In this document: one piece after another, positions 25,749 through 58,239 of the stretch
Layout: each line of letters starts with the position of its first letter
Position numbering within the stretch: position 1 is the first letter of the stretch
Assembly: GCA_964457775.1 (NCBI GenBank)
Contig: CAYWEW010000004.1
Coordinates: 24,705 to 88,704, forward strand
Origin: an uncultured Candidatus Saccharibacteria bacterium
Lineage (GTDB): Bacteria; Patescibacteriota; Minisyncoccia; Phycocordibacterales; UBA5272
Reading direction: 5' to 3'
Length of the DNA: 64,000 nt
Notes under the pieces: model-generated
What the model saw: only the letters and a program-made list of their open reading frames with translations
What the model was told of the DNA's origin: nothing
Database searches by the model: none
Made by a program: the position numbers and the translations under genes

Positions 25749-25770
25749 TAATTACTTTGTAGTATATAAC

Positions 25771-25800
25771 AAAACCCGAATCAATTAATTCGGGCTTTGT
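25771..25800 (-). terminator. Rho-independent terminator between the tRNA locus and murB
   Basis: CCCGAAT-caattaa-ATTCGGG flanked by A- and T-runs (works on either strand). Confidence 0.5.
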
Positions 25801-25806
25801 TATTTT

Positions 25807-25903
25807 GTGCGCGGTCCTGGATTCGCCTCTCGCATTGCTATGCTCGAAACCTACGTCCTCTCTTCGAGGACTGCGGCCCGCGGTTCGAATCCAGGACCGC
25901 ATT
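25807..25903 (-). repeat. tRNA-trailing structured element, degenerate copy A
   Basis: 15-bp terminal inverted repeat GCGGTCCTGGATTCG...CGAATCCAGGACCGC (acceptor-like plus T-stem-like). Internal GTCCTC-tcttc-GAGGAC hairpin. Not a canonical tRNA. Confidence 0.4.
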
Positions 25904-25940
25904 AAAAATAAAAAGGTGGCAGGGGTCATTTTCATCATCT

Positions 25941-26068
25941 TTTTATTGCTGTGCGCGAACCAAGATTCGGTCACCTCGTCTCGTTTCAAGATTACTTGAA
26001 ACAGGAGACTCCTCGACCCCTATTCGAATCTTGATGGAAATGACGCAGGTCATTTCCTGTTCGCGCAC
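25941..26068 (-). repeat. tRNA-trailing structured element, copy B (downstream of tRNA-Ile)
   Basis: The acceptor strands GCGCGAA/TTCGCGC are identical to tRNA-Ile. H1 hairpin GGAAATGAC-CTGC-GTCATTTCC. P1 CAAGATTCG/CGAATCTTG encloses AATAGGGGTCGAGGAG and a TTTCAAG-taat-CTTGAAA hairpin. Confidence 0.55.
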
Positions 26069-26113
26069 AGAATACAAAAAGCTAAGGATACTTCCTTAGC
26101 TTTTTGTATTCTG

Positions 26114-26186
26114 TGCGCGAACCAAGATTCGAACTTGGGACCGCTCGAGTATCAGTCGAGTGCTCTACCAGCTGAGCTATTCGCGC
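26114..26186 (-). tRNA. tRNA-Ile (anticodon GAT)
   Basis: Manual fold. Acceptor GCGCGAA/TTCGCGC, D-arm GCTC-AGCTGGTA-GAGC, anticodon loop CTGATAC, T-arm CCAAG-TTCGAAT-CTTGG, discriminator A. Confidence 0.8.
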
Positions 26187-37770: not shown

Positions 37771-38697
37771 CTATTTGTCTGTCTTAACCTCCATCATCCT
37801 ACCGTCAGTCACAAAAGAAATACTTCCTCTGTCTATTGTGCTTATAATTTCTTTTGTGTATTTTTGTAATCTGTCAATCGTCTCTACATTCGGATGTCCG
37901 TACTTATTATTTTTTCCTGCACTCACGACTGTGTACTCGGGTTTGATGTAACTTAGCAACTGCTCTCCACTTGATGTCTTACTTCCATGATGCCCTACTT
38001 TGTACACTGTCACATTTTTTGGAAGCGCACCACTATCGAATAATTTATTTTCTTTTGCTGTTGGTAAGTCTCCAGTTAACAAAAAACTTTGTTCTCCGTA
38101 TGTGATGACCATACTCACTGATGCATCATTCGTATCATTTTTCTTTTCTTGATAATTTTTTTGTGGGTACAAAATTTGTGCAGTTACTCCATCATGAAAA
38201 TCAATCACATCTCCTGTACGTGCGACATACATATCTGCATGTTCGACATCGATATGTTTATCTAACTCACCAAAAACTTTTGTGTCACTATGTACTGGTG
38301 ATTCTATAATTGTATGTGCTTTATATTTTTCTAAAACTGGAATTAATCCAGTCACATGATCTGCATCCGGATGAGTTGCGACTATCACATCTATCTCACG
38401 ATCAAAGTATGACATTTCAGAATCTAGTCTAGATAAAATTATATTCGTCGGACCACCATCTATAAGCATTTGTTTTCCACTTGGAGTTTGTACAAAAATT
38501 GCATCACCTTGTCCAACATCGAGAAAAGAAACTTTGAGTTTTTGTGGTGTGATTAATTTGTATATCACAATTGCTGATATCAAAATAATAAATAATGAAA
38601 TGAAAACAAAAGTAACTTTTCCATAATTATGAATAAAATCTTTTGTGCTTTTTCTCACATTTTCTCTCCACTCATTCATATGATAATAGTAACACAA
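37771..38697 (-). CDS. ComEC C-terminal metallo-beta-lactamase domain protein (split comEC, part 2)
   Basis: FLDVGQGDAIFVQTPSGKQMLIDGG..., HPDADHVTGL. Confidence 0.6.
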   Translation of the reverse strand: MCYYYHMNEWRENVRKSTKDFIHNYGKVTFVFISLFIILISAIVIYKLITPQKLKVSFLDVGQGDAIFVQTPSGKQMLIDGGPTNIILSRLDSEMSYFDREIDVIVATHPDADHVTGLIPVLEKYKAHTIIESPVHSDTKVFGELDKHIDVEHADMYVARTGDVIDFHDGVTAQILYPQKNYQEKKNDTNDASVSMVITYGEQSFLLTGDLPTAKENKLFDSGALPKNVTVYKVGHHGSKTSSGEQLLSYIKPEYTVVSAGKNNKYGHPNVETIDRLQKYTKEIISTIDRGSISFVTDGRMMEVKTDK

Positions 38698-39368: not shown

Positions 39369-40925
39369 TCAGTAGGAAATTATGTCGGTGAGATTTCCAT
39401 TCTCTCTTGTTGCACGCGTTTCATTATTATATTTTCTTAAAATTAATATCATTAGAATAGAAACGAAAAGATAAATAAAACACATCGTTTTAAATGAAAC
39501 GTTAAGCATAACTGTCGAGTAAGGAAATAATTCTATTGTTCTTGCTACCCATATCATGACCCCAATTAGTACTGAATCTATGTATCCAATAAGTAGTGAT
39601 AATGTGTGTGAAATGTATGAAAAAAATACAACCAAGAATGAGAACAACATCGCAATTGGTACAAATGGAACGACAAGCACATTCGCTATGAGGGCGTACA
39701 CTGACACTGTCCCGAAGGTGTACATAACATAAGGCAATGTCGCGAAGTAGGCAGACAAGGTAGTAATGAAGAGTTCTCTTAAAGAGAGTGGCGACACGTA
39801 AGAGAAATATTTTTGAAATAACAATGTAAGTGGTTCACTCATATACACCAATCCAACCGTTGCGAGAAACGAGAGATGAAGTGATACATCGTGCATGAGC
39901 GCATATGGTTCATACATCACAATTATAAATAACGAAATTATCAAAGCTTGCTTCGCTACATATTGACGACCGACCAACATTGCGAGTAACGCGATGAACG
40001 CCATCAGAGTTGCACGTATAACACTCGGACTACCCCCTACCATAATTACAAAAAGTACTACTGAAATTGAAGCGAACACAATACGCAAAGTAAGTGGAAG
40101 AAACGCGAGTGCAAACAAAATAGAAGCAATTACAATTACTATATTGAAACCAGAAAGAACCACAATGTGAGATAGTCCTGCAGAACGAAATGTCTGAGTT
40201 AATTCTTTGGACATTGATGATGCTCCGAACAACATCCCGCTTGCAAGTGATGACGCGGGTGATGAAACATAAGTATCAATTCTTGTAGTTAAATTTTCTT
40301 TCAGACGACCCAACACATCTCTTATAGCATGAGCCTCACTATCAATCCCCTCCACACGGGGGTACATCATTTCACTTCCAATATTTTTGGTCAGTAAGTA
40401 TGAAGCGTAATCAAATCCTTTTTCTTTGATCTCGTTATGAGAATAAATAATTTTTGGAACAGTAACTTTTCCAGAAAGTTTGAGCGTCTCGCCTATTTCA
40501 TATTTTGGATAAAGCGGTGTGCGAACTTCTACCGCAAGTGCTTCAACATCTTTGACAATCGGCTCTACTGAAAAAATTTGATACTCATTTTTTGTCTCTG
40601 GTGATGTAACAATTACAGCATTGAATGTACAACTACTCTCACATACAAAATTATTTTTCTCCTCAACTAATTGTACACGGATGATTCCGATAAATAGTCC
40701 GAGACAAAAAAGTGAAGTGACGAGCGGAAAAGGAAAATGATGAAGGATGTCGAAGATGTCCTTCATCATTTTTCTTTTCCGCTCCCAACCATACAACCCC
40801 AACTGTATCACCCCGAGCACCACTGCTAGCACCCCCACCTCACTTCCATACACAGACATCTCTCCAATCACAATTCCTAACAATGCTCCGACTACGAATA
40901 TAACTGTCTTTGCATGTGTTGTCAT
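39369..40925 (-). CDS. ComEC/Rec2 N-terminal membrane 'Competence' domain protein (split comEC, part 1)
   Basis: SVIRATLMAFIALLAMLVGR...LHLSFLATVGL competence-domain signature. Confidence 0.6.
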   Translation of the reverse strand: MTTHAKTVIFVVGALLGIVIGEMSVYGSEVGVLAVVLGVIQLGLYGWERKRKMMKDIFDILHHFPFPLVTSLFCLGLFIGIIRVQLVEEKNNFVCESSCTFNAVIVTSPETKNEYQIFSVEPIVKDVEALAVEVRTPLYPKYEIGETLKLSGKVTVPKIIYSHNEIKEKGFDYASYLLTKNIGSEMMYPRVEGIDSEAHAIRDVLGRLKENLTTRIDTYVSSPASSLASGMLFGASSMSKELTQTFRSAGLSHIVVLSGFNIVIVIASILFALAFLPLTLRIVFASISVVLFVIMVGGSPSVIRATLMAFIALLAMLVGRQYVAKQALIISLFIIVMYEPYALMHDVSLHLSFLATVGLVYMSEPLTLLFQKYFSYVSPLSLRELFITTLSAYFATLPYVMYTFGTVSVYALIANVLVVPFVPIAMLFSFLVVFFSYISHTLSLLIGYIDSVLIGVMIWVARTIELFPYSTVMLNVSFKTMCFIYLFVSILMILILRKYNNETRATRENGNLTDIISY

Positions 40926-44252: not shown

Positions 44253-46028
44253 TTAAATAACCTTAAACCCTATTTCTTTTAAATATTCAAAAGTAGAATT
44301 ATAAAAATCAGGATTTCGTGTTGGATCATTTTTATCACCATCAGGTATAACAATTACCATTCCTTGTCTTGCTCTAGTTAAAAGAACTCTGTAAGCATTT
44401 TTAAGATAGTTTTGTCGTTCTAACTTTCTGATATGATTCCAACGACTACCAACAAATGACCAATGTTCCCAACCATTATTGGTATATCTAAAATCTGCAT
44501 CCCAAATTACACAAGACCAATCTAGTTCAAGACCTTGAACATGAAACTCTGTTGCAACATCTTCGAGGTAATAAGATGAACGTACATCATCCTTTCCATC
44601 TAAAAACCAATGAATTGGATCAACTGGAGATTTAACATCTATAGCATATGGTTTTAATCTTTCTGCTTGAGAAGAAACCATAATTCCGTAACGTTCCGAA
44701 CCCCTCGCCTGCTCTTTTAACCATTGTTTCGCTTTGGAAACATCTCGAGTAATAACCATTGGGTATTTATTTTTTATATTATTTAAAGTATCTTGTGCGT
44801 CATTTAATTTAATATCAAGCAATTGTTTAAAAAGTAGAGAGACGTGCTCAGCACGAAATGAACGCATAGAAACATCAAGATGTAACTCATCTCTAGTTAC
44901 AACTAGAGGGTTATATTTTAATTCATCCAATACTTTTCCAGCTCCATACTCACTATCAGTTAGTCTAGAAGAAATATAAATATGCCAATCTGGAAAAGAT
45001 CTATTCATGGACTCAATCCATTCACTAATACCAGCTTCTCCGGTATTAATCTCTTGACCCCCACCAACAAGACAAACAACAACGGCCCAATCTTGATGTC
45101 TATCTAAACACGATATAAGAAACTCGGGTTCTGATTGTTTAAAATTAGGCATACCCTTTTTCCTATGCATAAAATTTACTGTTTGTTGTAAATCCCATGC
45201 ACGTTGTGATTCATCAAATAATACAACGTGCTCAATTGGTGGTTTTTCAAAATCAACCAAACATTCATCACGAAAATTATGAACGTTCTGAATAAACATT
45301 TTAACATTACTCATTACTTCTCCTTTTTTAATTTTATGACCTCGTTCCTTTTCATGTCTAACCTTATCTCGTGTTAGTGCTTCACGTAAGATTGCAACAA
45401 GTGGTCCATTACCAGAAAGAAAAACACTATACAAATCATTATCTTTATCTATATGTTTAGTTGCAATATTTAGTCCGACTAATGTTTTACCAGCACCTGG
45501 TACACCAGTAACAAAACAAATTGATTTATGTGATTTATTTTTAGATAAATTTATTATTTCTGAAACTGTTTCTGATGTTTTAGTTAAATTAACTGCGCCA
45601 GCATCACTACGAGATATGTTAACCACCGAATGACCATTGTACAAAGACATCGCCGCTTCAATGATTGTTGGTGTAGGGCAATACCTACCCATCTCCCATT
45701 GTTTTATATCAATATCTTTATCCTCAACAAATATTAAAATATTATTTATTGCTTGATTAAGTAATTCACTGTTACACATCACAGGAATAAGCAGCTTATC
45801 GTTTTGTAATGTAGTAGAAACAACAGTAACAGCACTCTTTGATTTAGTAGCTATTAGTACTGGAGCAATATAATGTTCATGACTTGACTCATGAAAGTTT
45901 TTTAAATCTAAAGCATAATCCCAAACTTGATCTATAGATGATGATAAAAATTCTTTATCGCCAACTTTAAATTCAAGTACAAATACTACTGGTCCAATAA
46001 GTAATACAACATCAATTCTTTTTGCCAT
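44253..46028 (-). CDS. DUF2075-type protein: PD-(D/E)xK-like N-terminus plus SF1-helicase-like ATPase
   Basis: IDVVLL...VLEFK (D...ExK), [34 protein letters not shown]. Possible frameshift at the 5' end (see findings). Confidence 0.55.
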
Positions 46029-47150: not shown

Positions 47151-47426
47151 TTAAAACAAATCGTTATGTGTCCCAATATCAATAAGAACTAAAACTAACT
47201 CATTCTTAATTATTTGATACACCAAAAGCAAATCTCCTTGTATATGACATTCTCTGTACCCACCATATTCTCCATGCAATTTATGGTCACGGTATTTTAT
47301 AGGAAGAGATTTACCGTTTGCAATCAAATCAATTACAACATCAACATCTAGCAATTTTACCTTGCCATTTTTTACAAGTTTTTTAATCGATTTCTTGTAA
47401 TCTTTTGAAAAATAAACTTGATACAT
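47151..47426 (-). CDS. yafQ: type II toxin YafQ (RelE/ParE superfamily mRNA interferase)
   Basis: ...KYRDHKLHGEYGGYRECHIQGDLLLVYQI..LVLIDIGTHNDLF. Confidence 0.75.
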   Translation of the reverse strand: MYQVYFSKDYKKSIKKLVKNGKVKLLDVDVVIDLIANGKSLPIKYRDHKLHGEYGGYRECHIQGDLLLVYQIIKNELVLVLIDIGTHNDLF

Positions 47427-47428
47427 AA

Positions 47429-47701
47429 TTAGCCAAAAATTGCTCTGTGCATCTCTTCTGCATTCTTATACCCTTTTGTTTTTAAAGCTTCTTTTACTTG
47501 TTTATCCCACTCTGCTCGAATTTGCTTCGGTGTTCTTGATGGCTTAAATGGTATCCCCTGTTCAATCACAACCTGATTAAGAAACATCTTCACAGCACTC
47601 GACAAATCAAGCCCCAAAGCTGATAAGGTCTTACTTGCATCTCTTTTTGTTTTTTCTTCAATTCTTATACTTAATGTAGTCATGGTATAAGTGTAGGACA
47701 A
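47429..47701 (-). CDS. dinJ: type II antitoxin DinJ/RelB family
   Basis: LSIRIEEKTKRDASKTLSALGLDLSSAVKMFLNQVV ribbon-helix-helix. 2-nt gap to yafQ. Confidence 0.7.
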   Translation of the reverse strand: MSYTYTMTTLSIRIEEKTKRDASKTLSALGLDLSSAVKMFLNQVVIEQGIPFKPSRTPKQIRAEWDKQVKEALKTKGYKNAEEMHRAIFG

Positions 47702-49706: not shown

Positions 49707-51212
49707 CTACTTAACTTTGAATTGCTTACGTATTTCTTTAATTTGTTCTTTGTTTTTCTCTTCCATCTCTTCTTTTCCTGCTTTGCCTAGCAATCTGAGC
49801 TCAATATCTGATAATTTAATCAATTCTAGTGCGCGTTTATCTAGATATTCTTCAGTATTTTTCTCTGGATTATCAAGCACTTCGTCGAATAATGCATGTA
49901 AAACAAAGCCAATCTTCGGCCCAGCCGTTTCTTGTGTAACGTCCATGATTCGTTTCCCGTCAGTTTTTAGCATTTTTAGTGTAACTGGATCCTGTATCGC
50001 TTGTTCTACCATTGATTCATACATTCTCAGTCTATATGGCTCTTCTTTTGGCCTTCCAGTGCCCACTCTGTCGCAAATGCGTAGATTGATCAAATCCCAT
50101 ATATTATCCTTGCCTACGTTCGTAATTAGGCGTCTAACAGCTGATATAGTTATCTGCTCAGTGTCGGAAAAGAACATATGCCAACGCACGAACATGGACA
50201 CTCTGTCTGTCATCTCTTTTGGAAACTTTAGTCGCTCCAATATTTCACGTGAAACACGCCCACCAACAACATCGTGGCCATAAAATGTATAATCTCCTTT
50301 CTCTTTTGAGAAACGGCGTGTTTCTGGCTTGGAAATGTCGTGTAACACTGCTGACAAACGTATATGTAACGGCCACTTCTTATCAGCGGCATGCTGTAAT
50401 GTGCGAAGATTGTGCTCCCAAACATCGAAACTGTGAGCCTGATTCTGCATAACCCCTATTCCACGCTCTAATTCTGGCACCACATATTTCAAAATATCCA
50501 CGTCTTTCATGATAACAATACCCCTCATCGGGAAATCAGTCATCAAAAGCTTGATAAATTCATCTTTTATCCTTTCACATGAAACGTTTCGCAAAAGATG
50601 GGCGTTTCTCTCGATACTTTCACGTGTAACGCTATCAATATCAAAGTCCAATTGGCTCATAAGTCTAATTCCTCTCATAAGTCGTAAAGCATCTTCGTTG
50701 AAACGCACATCTGGATTGCCGACCGCTCTTATGATTTTCTTTTGTATATCTAACTGTCCTTCGAAAGGATCGATTATTTCTCCAGTCATTGGATTGTAGG
50801 CAATGGCGTTACACGTGAAATCTCGACGCTTCAAATCATCTTCTATGTCCTTGCTCCACTTCACTTCATCTGGATGTCTGTTGTCAGAATATGTGGTTTC
50901 TAAACGATATGGTGTAACTTCAACAATCTTAACCGTTTCATCACTGCAAGCGGGTAAATTCTCCTCCCCACAAGTGACAACCCCTACGGTGCCATAAGTA
51001 TTTTCATAAAAAGTCTTTGGAAATAAGGCGATTATTTCCTCTGGGGTGGCGTTTGTTGTAATATCAAAATCTTTTGGTTTATTCCCCATAATTAAATCAC
51101 GAACACAGCCACCAACAAGAAACGCTTCGAATGAGGCGTTTTGAAGCACAGCAAGTACCATTGTTACTTCTTTTGGTATTCCTGTCCCTATTTTTTGCTG
51201 TATTTGTGTCAT
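49707..51212 (-). CDS. cca: CCA-adding tRNA nucleotidyltransferase with HD domain
   Basis: GGCVRDLIMG..DFDITT polymerase-beta head. HD motif HSFDVWEH...LLHDISK. Confidence 0.8.
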   Translation of the reverse strand: MTQIQQKIGTGIPKEVTMVLAVLQNASFEAFLVGGCVRDLIMGNKPKDFDITTNATPEEIIALFPKTFYENTYGTVGVVTCGEENLPACSDETVKIVEVTPYRLETTYSDNRHPDEVKWSKDIEDDLKRRDFTCNAIAYNPMTGEIIDPFEGQLDIQKKIIRAVGNPDVRFNEDALRLMRGIRLMSQLDFDIDSVTRESIERNAHLLRNVSCERIKDEFIKLLMTDFPMRGIVIMKDVDILKYVVPELERGIGVMQNQAHSFDVWEHNLRTLQHAADKKWPLHIRLSAVLHDISKPETRRFSKEKGDYTFYGHDVVGGRVSREILERLKFPKEMTDRVSMFVRWHMFFSDTEQITISAVRRLITNVGKDNIWDLINLRICDRVGTGRPKEEPYRLRMYESMVEQAIQDPVTLKMLKTDGKRIMDVTQETAGPKIGFVLHALFDEVLDNPEKNTEEYLDKRALELIKLSDIELRLLGKAGKEEMEEKNKEQIKEIRKQFKVK

Positions 51213-51242
51213 AGATTGTGTTAATATACCCTTTGTAAATAA

Positions 51243-51314
51243 GCTTCCGTAGTGAAATGGATATCACAACGGTCTTCGGAACCGTCGTTCTGGGTTCGAA
51301 TCCTAGCGGAAGCA
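51243..51314 (+). tRNA. tRNA-Arg (anticodon TCG)
   Basis: Manual fold. Acceptor GCTTCCG/CGGAAGC, anticodon loop CTTCGGA, T-arm CTGGG-TTCGAAT-CCTAG. Confidence 0.75.
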
Positions 51315-51520
51315 CAAAAATGTGAGTGAAACGAGTATTTTTGTGCTTCCGCAGAAAGTGACCTGCGTCACTTTCGTTAGGATTCGAATGAAAAACCGGT
51401 ACACGAGATTCGCGGAGCGAATACTTGTCGGTTTTTCCGGGGTAGCGAAACAATATTTTTATCGAGTCCGTAGGACGAGCTGAAAAATATATGTTTGGTG
51501 ACCGAGTCCTAGCAAATCCC
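51315..51520 (+). repeat. tRNA-trailing structured element, copy C (after tRNA-Arg)
   Basis: Inverted repeat GGAAGCACAAAAAT...TATTTTTGTGCTTCC regenerates the tRNA 3' end. H1 GAAAGTGAC-CTGC-GTCACTTTC. GGATTCGAATGAAAAACCGGTACAC. CTTGTCGGTTTTTCCGGGGTAGCGA. GGTGACCGAGTCC. Confidence 0.5.
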
Positions 51521-51964
51521 TACCCCTCCCAAATTGTACCACCCTCCCTCATTTTATTTAGTGACTACTCCACTTTCTTCGTTCCCTGTTTTTATAAATT
51601 GCTGTGACTGCAATTACGGCCATTACTCCAAGTAGAATATAAATTATTCTTAATGATGAAGTTTTAATGTATGTTTTTCCTGGTCCACAAGCAGAACTAG
51701 GTGTTTTGTTTGTATGAATAAGTGTGTACTCATCTATGTTTGTGTAAACTGGACCAAGTAAATTAGTCTTAATTATCAAGTCTTTTGCTTCAAACTTCAT
51801 TGGTGGTAATAATGATGGGGAGCATGCACTAGCAACGTTTATTTGAAGAAGTATTAAGGACAATATAATTAATGGTGATATTACTTTATGGGACATGGTT
51901 ATTTATAAATAATAACACATAATACGCTTTGTTGTAGAACGTTTTACGGAGAATCGGTCACCAC

Positions 51965-52171
51965 TACGGCTCGCTTTAAAAAGCTTTGCTTTTCTCATCT
52001 CGCACGTAGTCGCGACCCCGGGAAAAACCGACAAGCAATTCATTCAAAAAATTAATGACCCCTATTTTTTGATTGAATTCTTGTGTACCGGTTTTTCGTT
52101 CGATTCTCCACAGACATGTCGCAGGTCATGTCTTTACACCACACAAAATACTCACTACGTTCCTATTTTAG
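51965..52171 (-). repeat. tRNA-trailing structured element, copy G (after tRNA-Gly-GCC)
   Basis: Collinear with copy C. H1 AGACATGAC-CTGC-GACATGTCT. GGAGAATCGAACGAAAAACCGGTACAC. AATAGGGGTC. CTTGTCGGTTTTTCCCGGGGTCGCGAC. Confidence 0.5.
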
Positions 52172-52242
52172 TGCGGCGTAGGAGAATCGAACTCCTGTCT
52201 CAACCTTGGCAAGGTCGTGTTCTACCACTAAACCAACACCGC
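52172..52242 (-). tRNA. tRNA-Gly (anticodon GCC)
   Basis: Manual fold. Acceptor GCGGTGT/ACGCCGC, anticodon loop TTGCCAA, T-arm AGGAG-TTCGATT-CTCCT. Confidence 0.75.
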
Positions 52243-52550
52243 ATTGAGAGCAATTGTAACACGACAAAAGCATAATGAAAAGATGTGATTCTAAGAAAGC
52301 GTTATATACTAAACACTAGGCGTTTCTTGTGAAAAGGTCATGTTGACAACATATAGAAATCTGGGGATAAACCTGTGAGTAGTGGGTATAACGGACATAC
52401 AAATTACTCTAGGTCAAATCAATTATGCTATGGCCTTTATACCAAAAAAGACTTGTTAAATATAGGTTTTTTAAGGTCAGAGACTTTTAATTAGACAAAT
52501 AAAATAAGGACATCTGTTTCACGTGAAACGAATCAAATATATAGTAAATT

Positions 52551-52940
52551 ATGGCAGAACATAATGAAATTGGAAAAATTGGAGAGAATATAACAAAAAC
52601 GTTTCTTATGAAACACGGTTTTTCTGTTGTTGATATAAACTATAGGACCAAATATGGGGAAATTGACATTATAGCTAAAAAAGACAACGTAGTTAGATTT
52701 GTTGAGGTTAAGAGTGTGAAAGTCAGAGACTTTGAGAGTATTAGTAACTTGGCAGTGAAGCCAGAGGACAATTTAACAAATGACAAATGGTCAAAACTTG
52801 TTGTTTCATGCGAAACGTATTTGAAACATAAAAATATTTCACATGAAACTAAATGGCAGATTGATCTTGCTTGTGTTTATATTAATACTGAAATAAGGGA
52901 GGGGAAGGTGGTGTTGATGGAGAATGTGAGTAGGGGGTAA
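52551..52940 (+). CDS. yraN: YraN/UPF0102 family endonuclease-like protein
   Basis: GENITKTFLMKHGFSVVDINYRTKYGEIDIIAKKDNVVRFVEVKS. Confidence 0.6.
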   Translation: MAEHNEIGKIGENITKTFLMKHGFSVVDINYRTKYGEIDIIAKKDNVVRFVEVKSVKVRDFESISNLAVKPEDNLTNDKWSKLVVSCETYLKHKNISHETKWQIDLACVYINTEIREGKVVLMENVSRG

Positions 52941-53018
52941 TGAAAGTTTGATTGATTACTATAACTACATGCATATTTCAGAATATATGCTAGAATGTTC
53001 AATACGTTTACTTAATAT

Positions 53019-53091
53019 CGGAATGTGGTGTAACGGCTAACATCCCTGGTTTGGGACCAGGTGACTCCGGGTTCGAATCCCGGCATTCCGA
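53019..53091 (+). tRNA. tRNA-Pro (anticodon TGG)
   Basis: Manual fold. Acceptor CGGAATG/CATTCCG, anticodon loop TTTGGGA, T-arm CCGGG-TTCGAAT-CCCGG. Confidence 0.75.
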
Positions 53092-53245
53092 CAAATTGTA
53101 AAATCACACTTGTAATCAAGTGTGATTTTACTTTGGAGGATGCAGTGAGTGAACTGCTTCACTCACGTCGGCGATTCGAATAGGGGTCGCGAGAGCTATA
53201 TTTCGAGCACGCGAGAAATAGACCTTGTGACCGAATCCCGGCATG
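53092..53245 (+). repeat. tRNA-trailing structured element, copy D (after tRNA-Pro)
   Basis: Hairpin AAAATCACACTTG-taatc-AAGTGTGATTTT. H1 GTGAGTGAA-CTGC-TTCACTCAC. P1 GATTCG/CGAATC encloses AATAGGGGTCG. The 3' end CCGAATCCCGGCAT copies the tRNA-Pro T-stem/acceptor. Confidence 0.5.
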
Positions 53246-53266
53246 ACTATATGCTAAACTTGATTA

Positions 53267-53497
53267 ATGAATACACCACAAACAGGGGAGATATGGCAAC
53301 ATTATAAAACGAAAGGGGAATATGAAATTATTGGTCTTGGTCAACTACAAACAAAAGTAGAGTCTCTTGATATGAAAGAGTGTGTTATTTATAAATCACC
53401 AGCTGGCACACTGTGGGCACGACCACTGGCTGATTTTGTAGAAGATATTAAGAATGAAGAAGGGGAGATGACACCAAGATTTAAAAAAGTAAGATAA
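53267..53497 (+). CDS. DUF1653-like small protein
   Basis: GEIWQHYKTKGEYEIIG...LWARPLADF pattern. Confidence 0.45.
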   Translation: MNTPQTGEIWQHYKTKGEYEIIGLGQLQTKVESLDMKECVIYKSPAGTLWARPLADFVEDIKNEEGEMTPRFKKVR

Positions 53498-53512
53498 AAG
53501 AAAAAGACGTCG

Positions 53513-54076
53513 TTAGACGTCTTTTGCAAGAAGGTATTTCAAGCAATCTTCACAATATGGGGATTCTCTTTTGTATCTGGAAGAGGCTCTTTTAGTCCAT
53601 ATCGAATCAGACTCATCTTCACTCATTACACAATTGTTTAGGCAGTGACCTGTGCCGTTAGTACTAATACTTAGTCGGGCGCGATGCTTATTTATTAAAC
53701 CCATTGAATGACCCAGCTCGTGCAGGATTAAGTCCCAAACTTTTGCAGACCATTTCATGGAGTTGTTTCTAGGAATATCTTTTACGCCTATCACACACCT
53801 GTCGGGTAATGATAGGCCAAAAACTCTTTTTCTTCTCCACGTTAGATTCGCATTAACAATATAAAAGGTAAAACCTTTACAAAACATATGTACTTTTCTT
53901 TGAAAAATTACTGATGTTGGTACTGTTTCCCTTTCAGAAAGAATGGAGAGATCTTCATTTGACTCAACTGAGTACGTTACGTCAGTGAATATTTTTCTCA
54001 AATCTCTGACAACTCTGCGAATAACCTTGTTTGTGCCGTGTGGGACGAATGGATCTAAAACGAAACGAATGTACAT
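53513..54076 (-). CDS. archaemetzincin-like zinc metalloprotease (M54-type)
   Basis: HELGHSMGLINKH plus GHCLNNCVM and CEDC cysteine cluster. Confidence 0.55.
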   Translation of the reverse strand: MYIRFVLDPFVPHGTNKVIRRVVRDLRKIFTDVTYSVESNEDLSILSERETVPTSVIFQRKVHMFCKGFTFYIVNANLTWRRKRVFGLSLPDRCVIGVKDIPRNNSMKWSAKVWDLILHELGHSMGLINKHRARLSISTNGTGHCLNNCVMSEDESDSIWTKRASSRYKRESPYCEDCLKYLLAKDV

Positions 54077-54174
54077 GATACCCTCCCTTTATTGTTTCTA
54101 TTAATATACTATCAGAATTTTATACTAATCAAAACTAGAAAAGTCTAATCAAATATGATAGGATATATTTCACA

Positions 54175-54245
54175 AGCGGTGTTGGTTTAGTGGTAGAATG
54201 CCTGCCTTCCAAGCAGGAGACAAGAGTTCGATTCTCTTACGCCGC
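54175..54245 (+). tRNA. tRNA-Gly (anticodon TCC)
   Basis: Manual fold. Acceptor GCGGTGT/ACGCCGC, anticodon loop CTTCCAA, T-arm AAGAG-TTCGATT-CTCTT. Confidence 0.75.
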
Positions 54246-54442
54246 ACAGAAATATAAAATCCTGAAACAAATTGTTTCAGGATTTTATATTTCTGTGCGG
54301 CGTAAGCAAGACAACTGCTTGTCTTGCATAGAGAATCGAATAGGGGTCGAGGAGCCATTTGTTTCTTGTAATCAAGAAACTGGCGAGGTGACCGATTCTC
54401 TTGAAGACTTATTTGTCGGTTTTTCCCGAGGTCGCGACTAGG
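54246..54442 (+). repeat. tRNA-trailing structured element, copy E (after tRNA-Gly-TCC)
   Basis: 30-bp inverted repeat regenerating the tRNA 3' end. H1 GCAAGACAA-CTGC-TTGTCTTGC. P1 AGAGAATCG/CGATTCTCT encloses AATAGGGGTCGAGGAG and TTTCTTG-taat-CAAGAAA. TTTGTCGGTTTTTCCCGAGGTCGCGAC. Confidence 0.55.
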
Positions 54443-54575
54443 AGTGTTTTGTGAATAACAAAGTTATGAAACAAAACACTCAAAGTAATGACCGATTCTC
54501 TTACAATCGTTTGTCCAATTCTGTATTTCTTTATATAATACCCAAAGAAGTTCAACTACCCCCAAGGAGAAAATC

Positions 54576-54821
54576 ATGCCGTGCGAATGCAAGTGCCAAT
54601 GTTCTTGTCATCATAAGGATATTCCTTTTTCGGAGATGTCGAAAGCAGATCAAGCAAAACTGAAGAGGGAAGCAGGTTACGGTTTATCAAGAAAGCTTTT
54701 GGGTAAAGAGAGTCTGGCTCATCGTGAAAAACTAGACCACTCTCTATCATTAGATGAATCAAGAAGAAGACAAACACAGCGAGCTTTTGAAGCCTTTAAC
54801 GATAGTTTCGGCAAAGGATAA
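54576..54821 (+). CDS. small protein with Cys-rich N-terminus (MPCECKCQCSCHH)
   Basis: AAGGAGAAAATC RBS. Terminator at 54836-54868. Confidence 0.4.
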   Translation: MPCECKCQCSCHHKDIPFSEMSKADQAKLKREAGYGLSRKLLGKESLAHREKLDHSLSLDESRRRQTQRAFEAFNDSFGKG

Positions 54822-57696: not shown

Positions 57697-58239
57697 ATGA
57701 TCACCAGAATCAAGAAGTCGCTGGCTTATGTCCCAGCGTCGCTTTTGGAAGCCACCAGCTTCCTCGTCTCCATCGGTCAGAAGCAACGCGAGATTAATCG
57801 TCTCAAGCGTGAAGCCAAACAAAAAGTGGAGGCGATCAATCTCGCTACCAAGAAGTCGGTCGATGAACTGACAAAAGAACGTGATACGTTCTTCACGGCT
57901 CTGTTCGCCTTCGCTTCTCCAAGGAAGGCTGAGCTGACGAAGGTCACCCGTTCGCAAAAAACGAACGCTGGAACCTTCGGTTGGCGCTTCACCACTCCTT
58001 ATGTCGATATCGCAGAAGGCAAAAGCGATCAAGACATAATCGCAACACTGAAGAAAGCTGGTCTCACTGACTACATCCGCGTCATCGAAGAAGTTGACCG
58101 CGAGGCAATGCTTCGTGATCGTCCGGAAGTGAAAGGTGTTTCCTATTCCAATCGTGACGAATTCTTTGCCAAGCCCAAGCTTGCAAAAGAAGATGGTCGT
58201 GCAGAAGAGCTCGTCAAAACCGAAGCGATTGATGTTTAA
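57697..58239 (+). CDS. Mu Gam-like host-nuclease inhibitor / DNA-end-binding protein
   Basis: AYVP, IGQKQREINRLKRE, FGWRFTTPYVDI...LKKAGLTDYIRVIEEVDREAML are collinear with phage Mu Gam. About 50% GC. Confidence 0.6.
   Translation: MITRIKKSLAYVPASLLEATSFLVSIGQKQREINRLKREAKQKVEAINLATKKSVDELTKERDTFFTALFAFASPRKAELTKVTRSQKTNAGTFGWRFTTPYVDIAEGKSDQDIIATLKKAGLTDYIRVIEEVDREAMLRDRPEVKGVSYSNRDEFFAKPKLAKEDGRAEELVKTEAIDV

Follow-up and report, generated by a model that had tools for sequence, protein, structure and literature searches.

Structured elements that carry an antisense strand and a copy of the 3' end of their upstream tRNA follow tRNA genes in Patescibacteria

We analyzed a 64,000-nucleotide stretch of contig CAYWEW010000004.1 (assembly GCA_964457775.1, an uncultured Candidatus Saccharibacteria bacterium), referred to below as the window, in which the tRNA-Ile gene is followed by two structured elements, B and A. 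The results show that B and A represent two sister classes within one superfamily of structured elements that lie directly 3' of same-strand tRNA genes in Patescibacteria (candidate phyla radiation, CPR), and that the three copies of a 20-nucleotide sequence found at this locus are the end of the tRNA and the 3' closing strands of B and A, not attachment (att) sites; we hold this identification as a whole with high confidence. Each element combines a 5' strand that is antisense to the 3' third of its own tRNA (C56 to A73 plus the trailer) with a core that is conserved but does not resemble tRNA, and with a 3' strand in which the same stretch of the tRNA is repeated. In B, the core consists of the hairpin P2 with its CUGC loop, an AAUAGG bulge, and the domain P4 with a conserved G.U pair. 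All coordinates are those of the window, and L-numbers denote loci collected from related genomes.

Read along the minus strand, the locus runs from tRNA-Ile through the palindromic hairpin 1, element B, hairpin 2, element A, and the terminator-like hairpin 3 to murB (Table 1). The original prediction, made from the sequence of the window, had described a tandem pair of shadow elements behind tRNA-Ile, along with three direct copies of a tRNA 3' end, and this description is correct. The 20-mer of the real gene, TGTGCGCGAACCAAGATTCG, lies at 26112-26131 as predicted and has just two exact occurrences in the 64 kb, where none is expected by chance. Its second copy had been placed at 25940-25959, which is wrong by 10 nucleotides; the true position is 25950-25969, and the exact direct repeat extends to 21 nucleotides (26111-26131 and 25949-25969). 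The diverged third copy at 25806-25825 was borne out, with agreement at 16 of 20 positions, and the perfect 15-bp terminal inverted repeat ascribed to element A (25811-25825 with 25886-25900) appears as 15 consecutive pairs in its fold. In addition, a 30-nucleotide perfect inverted repeat that the prediction did not mention unites the last 9 nucleotides of tRNA-Ile, hairpin 1, and the first 9 nucleotides of B, so that hairpin 1 is the center of a 30+30-nucleotide perfect palindrome at 26059-26122 (26059-26088 with 26093-26122). The anti-acceptor strand CUGUGCGCGAAC of B is complementary to the acceptor 3' strand of tRNA-Ile together with the discriminator and the trailer CAG, and it is also complementary to the 3' end of B, with which it forms helix P1. 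Element B can be read as a tRNA-Ile paralogue in which a single hairpin takes the place of the D and anticodon arms and 57 nucleotides are inserted in the T-loop. By eye, hairpins 1 and 3 look like intrinsic terminators, while a simple scan gave hairpin 3 alone and on the opposite strand only; the structured cores of the elements are not terminators. Public short-read assemblies of the same or close organisms (L001-L003, L100, L101) stop within the tRNA-Ile trailer, for example 124 nucleotides upstream of murB.

Table 1. Coordinates of the tRNA-Ile locus and of the other tRNA trailers in the window.
Feature	Position	Strand	Evidence or remark
tRNA-Ile(GAT), without encoded CCA	26114-26186	-	ARAGORN; Rfam RF00005, 73.1 bits
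X: tRNA nucleotides C56-A73 plus trailer CAG; master copy of the 21-nucleotide direct repeat	26111-26131	-	Sequence match
Hairpin 1, terminator-like: A-tract, 8-bp G+C core, U-tract	26071-26110	-	100% complementary inverted repeat
Anti-acceptor strand CUGUGCGCGAAC of B	26059-26070	-	Inverted repeat, fold; identical in L099
P2 hairpin of B, 9 bp, CUGC tetraloop	26036-26057	-	9/9 pairs covary in homologues
P3 5' strand (anti-T) of B	26026-26033	-	Complementary to T-loop 3' half and T-stem 3' strand of the tRNA
J, conserved unpaired bulge GAAUAGG (family consensus AAUA(N)GGG)	26019-26025	-	Homologue alignment
P4 domain of B; base GGUCG/UGACC with conserved G.U; apical part variable	25969-26018	-	Fold and alignment; absent in L099
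X': 3' strand of B (P3 and P1 3' strands)	25949-25968	-	With last C of P4 (25969), exact 21-nucleotide copy of X
Hairpin 2, weak spacer between B and A; A-rich and U-rich flanks	25907-25947	-	Inverted repeat
Element A (A-type)	25806-25903	-	Fold; homologues L081, L094, L047, L023, L012
Element A 5' arm	25886-25900	-	
Element A core	25826-25885	-	AACCGCGGGCCGCA, hairpin with GAAGA loop, GUAGGUUUCGAG, second hairpin, GAGAGG
Element A 3' arm	25811-25825	-	Followed by tail GCACA
Hairpin 3, terminator-like, ahead of murB	25768-25801	-	Inverted repeat
murB start codon ATG	25748	-	
B-related long-variant trailer after tRNA-Arg(TCG) (tRNA 51243-51314)	51338-51440; whole element to ~51520	+	R1, 46 bits
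B-related long-variant trailer after tRNA-Gly(GCC) (tRNA 52172-52242)	52020-52149; whole element ~51945-52150	-	R1, 33 bits
B-type trailer after tRNA-Pro(TGG)	53129-53254	+	R1, 86 bits
B-type trailer after tRNA-Gly(TCC)	54290-54415	+	R1, 88 bits
Second element after tRNA-Gly(TCC), 5'-truncated long variant with its own tRNA-Gly T-segment copy	~54405-54505	+	

The B-type trailing element is defined by a covariance model, R1, built from 101 homologues. B is the best R1 match in the window (95.2 bits, E = 6.5e-24), with its core beginning 85 nucleotides past tRNA-Ile, and each of the five window tRNAs (Ile, Arg, Gly-GCC, Pro, and Gly-TCC) has one B-type R1 match behind it. Scanning the exact core pattern over one genome per species (185,579 species) gave 91 stretches, all of them from CPR metagenome-assembled genomes save one chance match. 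The homologues come from at least 36 Patescibacteria genomes, labeled Paceibacterota/Parcubacteria, Nomurabacteria, "Saccharibacteria," or Gracilibacteria; the ribosomal protein S7 encoded in the window is nearest to those of Nomurabacteria and Parcubacteria. A same-strand tRNA was present no more than 330 nucleotides upstream for 81 of 105 cores, as against 9, 13, and 4 at control positions, and the tRNAs preceding the cores comprise 24 anticodon species and 15 amino-acid identities. Among the 167 tRNAs of the collected loci, a copy of the T-segment was found downstream of 83 and upstream of 10, and its antisense downstream of 87 and upstream of 6. R1 recovered 156 elements in these loci, about 50 of which had not been picked by the search pattern.

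Elements that have no ARAGORN or Rfam tRNA upstream (L092, L089, L067, L013, L010, L029, and L058) sit behind degenerate tRNA-like 3' halves with odd T-arms, for example GUGGGUACUUAACCCAC, followed by an acceptor-like end, and in the orphan element of L010 the closing helix is maintained via G.U pairs with no tRNA nearby. Many spacers after tRNA-Cys, Gly-GCC, Thr, and Arg (e.g., L081 3535-3550, L093, and L034) carry a GCGAAGC or CUCAC-GAA-GUGAG mini-hairpin in place of the long hairpin, and these mini-hairpins pair with the final tRNA nucleotides.

Folding and alignment of the family point to a conserved structure. The predicted fold of B has an energy of -63.9 kcal/mol (z = -9.1 relative to shuffled sequence) and that of A -51.1 kcal/mol (z = -6.0). 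In 101 aligned elements, 93.8% of the cells were paired, compared with 34-46% when the partners were slid, and the covariation score of 0.49 (0.185 for shuffles) was reached by none of 500 shuffles. A mixed set of 58 elements, including about 26 not chosen by the search pattern, was 94.6% paired; here the innermost pair of P3 changes from C-G to U-A in step with tRNA position 57, and the G.U pair of P4 is retained in 56 of 57. All nine pairs of P2 covary in both sets. A pairing of the P2 loop CUGC with a GCAG in the core was considered and rejected, as GCAG occurs in some C-type and A-type cores without covariation. G.U is commoner than A.C in P3 and P4, and this excess, together with the fixed orientation of the elements relative to the tRNA, argues for RNA of the sense strand.

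The antisense strands are matched to the individual tRNA. In B, the 3' strand is an exact 21-nucleotide copy, and both anti-T and anti-acceptor match tRNA-Ile perfectly; across the family, the anti-T strand is Watson-Crick complementary to its own tRNA at 625 of 710 positions, and it tracks differences between orthologous tRNAs (e.g., CCCGG versus CCCTG in tRNA-Pro, and G57 versus A57 in the T-loop). The tRNA and the 3' copy differ at 38 positions; at 20 of these the antisense strand is complementary to the tRNA alone, and at 6 to the copy alone. The anti-acceptor is present in 48 of 71 elements, the acceptor copy in 35, and both in 21; with the acceptor parts incomplete in most elements, P2, P3, and P4 are the constant part and the outer helix is optional. 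The direct repeat continues into the genomic trailer, by at least 3 nucleotides in 14 of 29 cases, which indicates a copy made at the DNA level and not from a CCA-ended tRNA. A retro-copy of mature tRNA, or a sequence akin to a primer-binding site, was rejected because both copies, antisense and sense, match the CAG of the genomic trailer and not CCA.

Element A belongs to a separate class. The original prediction had suggested scoring both elements against the model of the trailing-element family; B, at 95 bits, behaves as an ordinary member, while A had no match to R1 at E values up to 10 and was placed in the sister class on other evidence. By nhmmer, A has a homologue in L081 behind tRNA-Leu (E = 5.5e-8), and L094 and L047 contain weaker ones. 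The A-type homologues sit behind tRNA-Leu, tRNA-Met, and tRNA-Lys, and in L047 the order tRNA-Met, B-type element, A-like element is the same as in the window. Five A-type members have in common with the B-type class the frame anti-T...UCG / CGA...T-copy, within which three blocks were seen: anti-T followed by UCGAACCG..GG; a covarying hairpin (GUCCUC/GAGGAC versus ACCUGC/GCAGGU); and GAGRGG followed by CGA and the T-copy. Double changes were observed at 10 of 19 pairs in this alignment, a small sample of five members. A is separated from tRNA-Ile by B. Its arms match tRNA-Ile at all but 4 of 20 positions, and each of the 4 differences is compensated within A. No tRNA with the 3' end sequence of A was found among the collected loci; either A derives from a different tRNA locus, or it has diverged with its own helix preserved.

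The original prediction had proposed that related genomes be searched for an empty site. Attempted through MurB in metagenome contigs, this comparison gave just relatives at 36-42% identity without synteny; it succeeded through ribosomal protein S7, which led to the syntenic locus L099 (S7, small open reading frame, tRNA-Ile, murB; S7 97% and MurB 66% identical), while four other S7 relatives had the usual S7-fusA order without tRNA-Ile. At L099 the tRNA-proximal frame of B is present, and P4 and element A are absent. Its tRNA-Ile is 100% identical to that of the window, and the flanks of hairpin 1, the anti-acceptor, and the anti-T are identical as well. The hairpin 1 stem differs by three compensatory double changes that leave the pairing perfect, and P2 by three compensatory changes with a CUAC loop; an 18-nucleotide loop replaces the bulge and P4, the acceptor copy is missing, and the tRNA leader cannot be aligned between the two genomes. 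The comparison thus places the tRNA-proximal frame under constraint or constant homogenization, with P4 and A variable. Elsewhere, orthologous tRNAs are followed by no element or by B-type, C-type, or A-type elements, and after tRNA-Cys there is none, B, or C.

The original prediction had offered tandem pseudo-tRNA duplication as an explanation, and these data bear on whether the locus is a set of such copies that are in decay and lack a function. The anatomy of B agrees with such an origin, with acceptor 5' strand, hairpin, T-stem 5' strand, the T-loop-like UUCGAAU, an insertion, T-stem 3' strand, acceptor 3' strand, discriminator, and trailer in this order, and so do the orphan elements behind degenerate tRNA-like 3' halves. 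That part of the explanation stands, but one non-tRNA P2 and core is found behind 15 tRNA identities in at least 36 genomes, which largely refutes the rest; the covariation is strong, and between genomes whose MurB proteins are 66% identical the frame is as well conserved as the tRNA itself, unlike pseudogenes. On the window, ARAGORN reported five real tRNAs only, and RF00005 missed both A and B at E values up to 10. We regard decay without function as very improbable.

Even smaller is the probability we assign to scars of a tyrosine integrase, or miniature cargo, at the tRNA 3' end, with the repeats as attL and attR. The direct repeat does begin in the T-loop and end just past the tRNA, as att identity blocks do, and the original prediction had noted that direct repeats of a tRNA 3' end normally mark att scars. 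This reading fails, since B is an ordinary and, within the window, the top-scoring family member, A belongs to a sister class, and the search for a tyrosine integrase that the prediction had called for found none: a Pfam scan of the 68 open reading frames in the window gave housekeeping genes only, with no integrase, transposase, reverse transcriptase, or recombinase. Moreover, the supposed cargo measures merely 120-140 nucleotides and has a conserved structured core, an inverted copy is present besides the direct one, and the same core stands behind tRNAs of 15 identities, each with matched repeats. Because the five window tRNAs that carry trailers differ in identity, one site-specific integrase cannot explain them. 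In IMG/VR, the B pattern had no matches and the A pattern had two G+C-rich chance matches.

A more serious competitor, although we still consider it unlikely, is that the elements are selfish or neutral palindromic DNA repeats resembling repetitive extragenic palindromic (REP) sequences or miniature inverted-repeat transposable elements (MITEs), which would form hairpins in single-stranded DNA and be spread or homogenized by template switching, gene conversion, or an HUH/Y1 transposase, with the core as the recognition site of the enzyme. Several observations agree with this. The palindromes remain perfect even after the stem sequence has turned over, L075 contains identical tandem units, the type and presence of elements change at orthologous tRNAs, the extension of the direct repeat into the genomic trailer implies a DNA copy, and public assemblies break at the elements. 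In L049 (~2380-2655), two complete B-type elements stand head to head round one hairpin as a single perfect giant palindrome with no tRNA. A Y1_Tnp gene (IS200/IS605 or REP-associated tyrosine transposase type; L102 6332-6504, minus strand) adjoins fusA in a CPR relative that carries B-type elements. Against these stand the orientation, which always tracks the tRNA and not replication (the window tRNAs lie on both strands, each with its trailer on its own strand), and the P4 G.U pair, which is kept beside covarying pairs although palindrome correction at the DNA level would erase it. Copies are found only behind tRNAs or tRNA remnants, the window contains no transposase, conservation of the loops and the bulge extends to distant CPR lineages, and the arms of the elements derive from the tRNA and not from the element. 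Single-stranded DNA is the less probable acting form.

The elements probably act as RNA on the tRNA strand, made as the 3' trailer of the tRNA. Such trailer RNA would be produced by read-through of a leaky hairpin, or obligatorily where no terminator intervenes. After tRNA-Cys, the core lies about 47 nucleotides from the tRNA end, an interval that lacks a U-tract and leaves no space for a promoter, and co-transcription is there hard to avoid. In predicted read-through transcripts, the T-stem 3' strand of the tRNA pairs with the downstream strand in 67 of 71 and the acceptor 3' strand in 56 of 71, and enforcing the cloverleaf costs a median of 11 kcal/mol. We hypothesize, tentatively, a bistable precursor that acts in maturation or quality checking of the tRNA 3' end. 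In one state, the cloverleaf would form and the element would close on itself via P1 and P3; in the other, the antisense strand of the element would clamp the T-arm and acceptor 3' strand of the tRNA into one long duplex. The toggle might control or quality-check the 3'-end maturation of read-through precursors, for example by presenting a substrate for a double-stranded RNA nuclease, with the conserved P2/J/P4 core as a protein-binding platform, and tandem arrays such as B followed by A may arise via unequal recombination between the direct repeats. Taken as a whole, the explanation we favor seems to us evenly poised between right and wrong. Its fullest form, in which a CPR cis-acting RNA module behind most tRNA genes is programmed by complementarity to its own tRNA, reversibly clamps the T-arm and acceptor 3' strand of the precursor, and offers P2/J/P4 to a putative dedicated protein, is more speculative than the bistable precursor itself.

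Several points weigh against this explanation. Transcription past hairpin 1 is assumed, and the clamp is a nearest-neighbor energy prediction that ignores tRNA tertiary structure, modifications, and co-transcriptional folding. Element A preserves its own helix rather than complementarity to tRNA-Ile. Because L099 has neither P4 nor A, the core could be cargo that is dispensable; the differing element types at orthologous tRNAs fit mobility as well as function. Perfect palindromes, including that of L049, show that template switching operates at the DNA level in these genomes, and template switching alone could yield both the "compensatory" changes and the antisense strand. Finally, the closing acceptor helix P1 is complete in just 21 of the 71 elements, so a strict model of tRNA mimicry or processing cannot be general.

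A further idea is that the elements are independent tRNA-like small RNAs. RNase P would cut at the P1 5' end and RNase Z behind the copied discriminator, and the product would receive a CCA and act in trans, with the tRNA-derived stems as a mere processing scaffold. P1 and P3 do mimic the coaxial acceptor/T-stem stack of the neighbor tRNA, P2 being placed at the attachment site of the D and anticodon arms, the discriminator is included in the copy, a CCA-adding enzyme is encoded in the window, and the orphan element of L010 keeps its P1. We nonetheless think this improbable: P1 is complete in only 30% of elements, that of B pairs through the discriminator and 3 trailer nucleotides and leaves no free N73, the replaced T-loop deprives the S-domain of RNase P and the CCA enzyme of their measuring point, neither ARAGORN nor the Rfam tRNA model recognizes the elements, and the acceptor copy is absent from L099.

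It is slightly less probable again that the elements are reinforced terminators, insulators, or exonuclease-blocking structures at the ends of tRNA units. Hairpins with A and U tracts bracket each unit, and palindromic terminators extending into the acceptor strand are found without a following element as well (L018, L046 Gly-TCC). A terminator role, however, leaves unexplained the matching of anti-T and T-copy, the conserved loop and bulge sequences, and the G.U pair; the antisense strand, moreover, follows the U-tract and hence is of no help to termination. In L021 (5428-5618), tRNA-Pro and tRNA-Gly(TCC) converge tail to tail on one bidirectional hairpin without a trailer, an arrangement that yields a tRNA end, a hairpin, and an antisense tRNA end without any element.

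The trailing-element class is apparently undescribed so far. Rfam 15 contains no family for A or B (E up to 10 around tRNA-Ile) or for the other trailers (E up to 0.1, 51200-54600), and its matches on the palindromes were spurious microRNA-hairpin ones only. Self-cleaving ribozymes were also looked for: inspection by eye showed no hammerhead core, and the ribozyme families of Rfam (hammerhead, HDV-like, twister, hatchet, pistol, and others) gave no match at E values up to 10. A literature search of open-access full texts found no description of such elements, and we know of no described system that pairs each tRNA gene with a conserved structured module bearing an antisense strand and a copy of the 3' third of that tRNA.

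Partial likenesses to known systems exist. MALAT1 mascRNA, the tRNA-like domain of tmRNA, and the Y-RNA-like YrlA RNAs also contain helices that imitate the acceptor/T-arm stack and lie where tRNA-processing enzymes could set the RNA ends; the elements here instead mimic each its own neighbor tRNA and carry its antisense, with the T-loop swapped for a large domain and the acceptor helix often incomplete. Integrative elements in tRNA genes, at the T-loop sublocation, have att direct repeats that likewise run from the T-loop to just past the tRNA 3' end and bracket foreign sequence, whereas here there is no integrase, the unit is 120-140 nucleotides, an inverted copy is present, and one core serves 15 tRNA identities. 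Like REPs, bacterial interspersed mosaic elements, and MITEs, the trailing elements are multi-copy, strongly folding, intergenic, 3' of transcription units, and assembly-breaking; unlike them, they are confined to tRNA 3' flanks, always lie on the tRNA strand, take their outer arms from the neighboring gene, and keep the conserved G.U. With attenuators, riboswitches, and the processing stalks of rRNA they would have in common mutually exclusive helices in one transcript (X:anti-X versus anti-X:X') and a long duplex of flanking sequence that could be a nuclease substrate; the competing segment here belongs to the mature tRNA. Some 3' external transcribed spacers of tRNAs act as small RNAs, e.g., 3'ETS-leuZ of E. 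coli, and are single unstructured sponge sequences. The likeness would lie in a functional RNA from a tRNA 3' trailer, the difference in a conserved structured family matched tRNA by tRNA.

The remaining trailers and genes of the window are as follows. The trailer array after tRNA-Gly(TCC) is a mosaic (Table 1). A YraN/UPF0102 gene (PD-(D/E)XK type; 52551-52940, plus strand) lies between tRNA-Gly(GCC) and tRNA-Pro. It is unusually conserved, with about 600 homologues at about 70-100% identity, and among the matches listed (best 120), the named ones are from Patescibacteria; most of the homologues are on contigs of about 1 kb and so have an assembly-breaking repeat on either side. At 30 nucleotides from tRNA-Arg lies a gene (49707-51212, minus strand) whose product resembles CCA-adding tRNA nucleotidyltransferases and has an HD domain; encoded CCA is absent from all five window tRNA genes. 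ComEC is split, with the competence and metallo-beta-lactamase (MBL) domains as separate open reading frames (37771-38697 and 39369-40925, both minus strand); the MBL-fold protein at 37771-38697 was considered as an RNase Z and rejected, since NCBIfam assigns it to the ComEC C-terminal domain. Further genes are a YafQ/RelB toxin-antitoxin pair (47151-47701, minus strand), a Mu Gam-like protein (57697-58239, plus strand), and a Schlafen-type helicase (44253-46028, minus strand).

In practical terms, trailing elements fragment metagenome assemblies at tRNA loci, and annotation could mistake them for integration scars or pseudo-tRNAs. Patescibacteria, most of them uncultivated, make up a very large share of the bacterial tree; their genomes are tiny, and even at this size they devote an estimated several kilobases to trailing elements. 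A structured module matched to its tRNA falls outside the described schemes of tRNA maturation, regulation, and mobile elements. If the elements act as DNA, they would represent a new kind of gene-targeted repeat; if they act as RNA, they pose the testable question of how tRNA 3' ends are made and policed with a reduced set of RNases; and if the clamp module is true, it would constitute a new RNA-guided layer of tRNA biogenesis or quality control.

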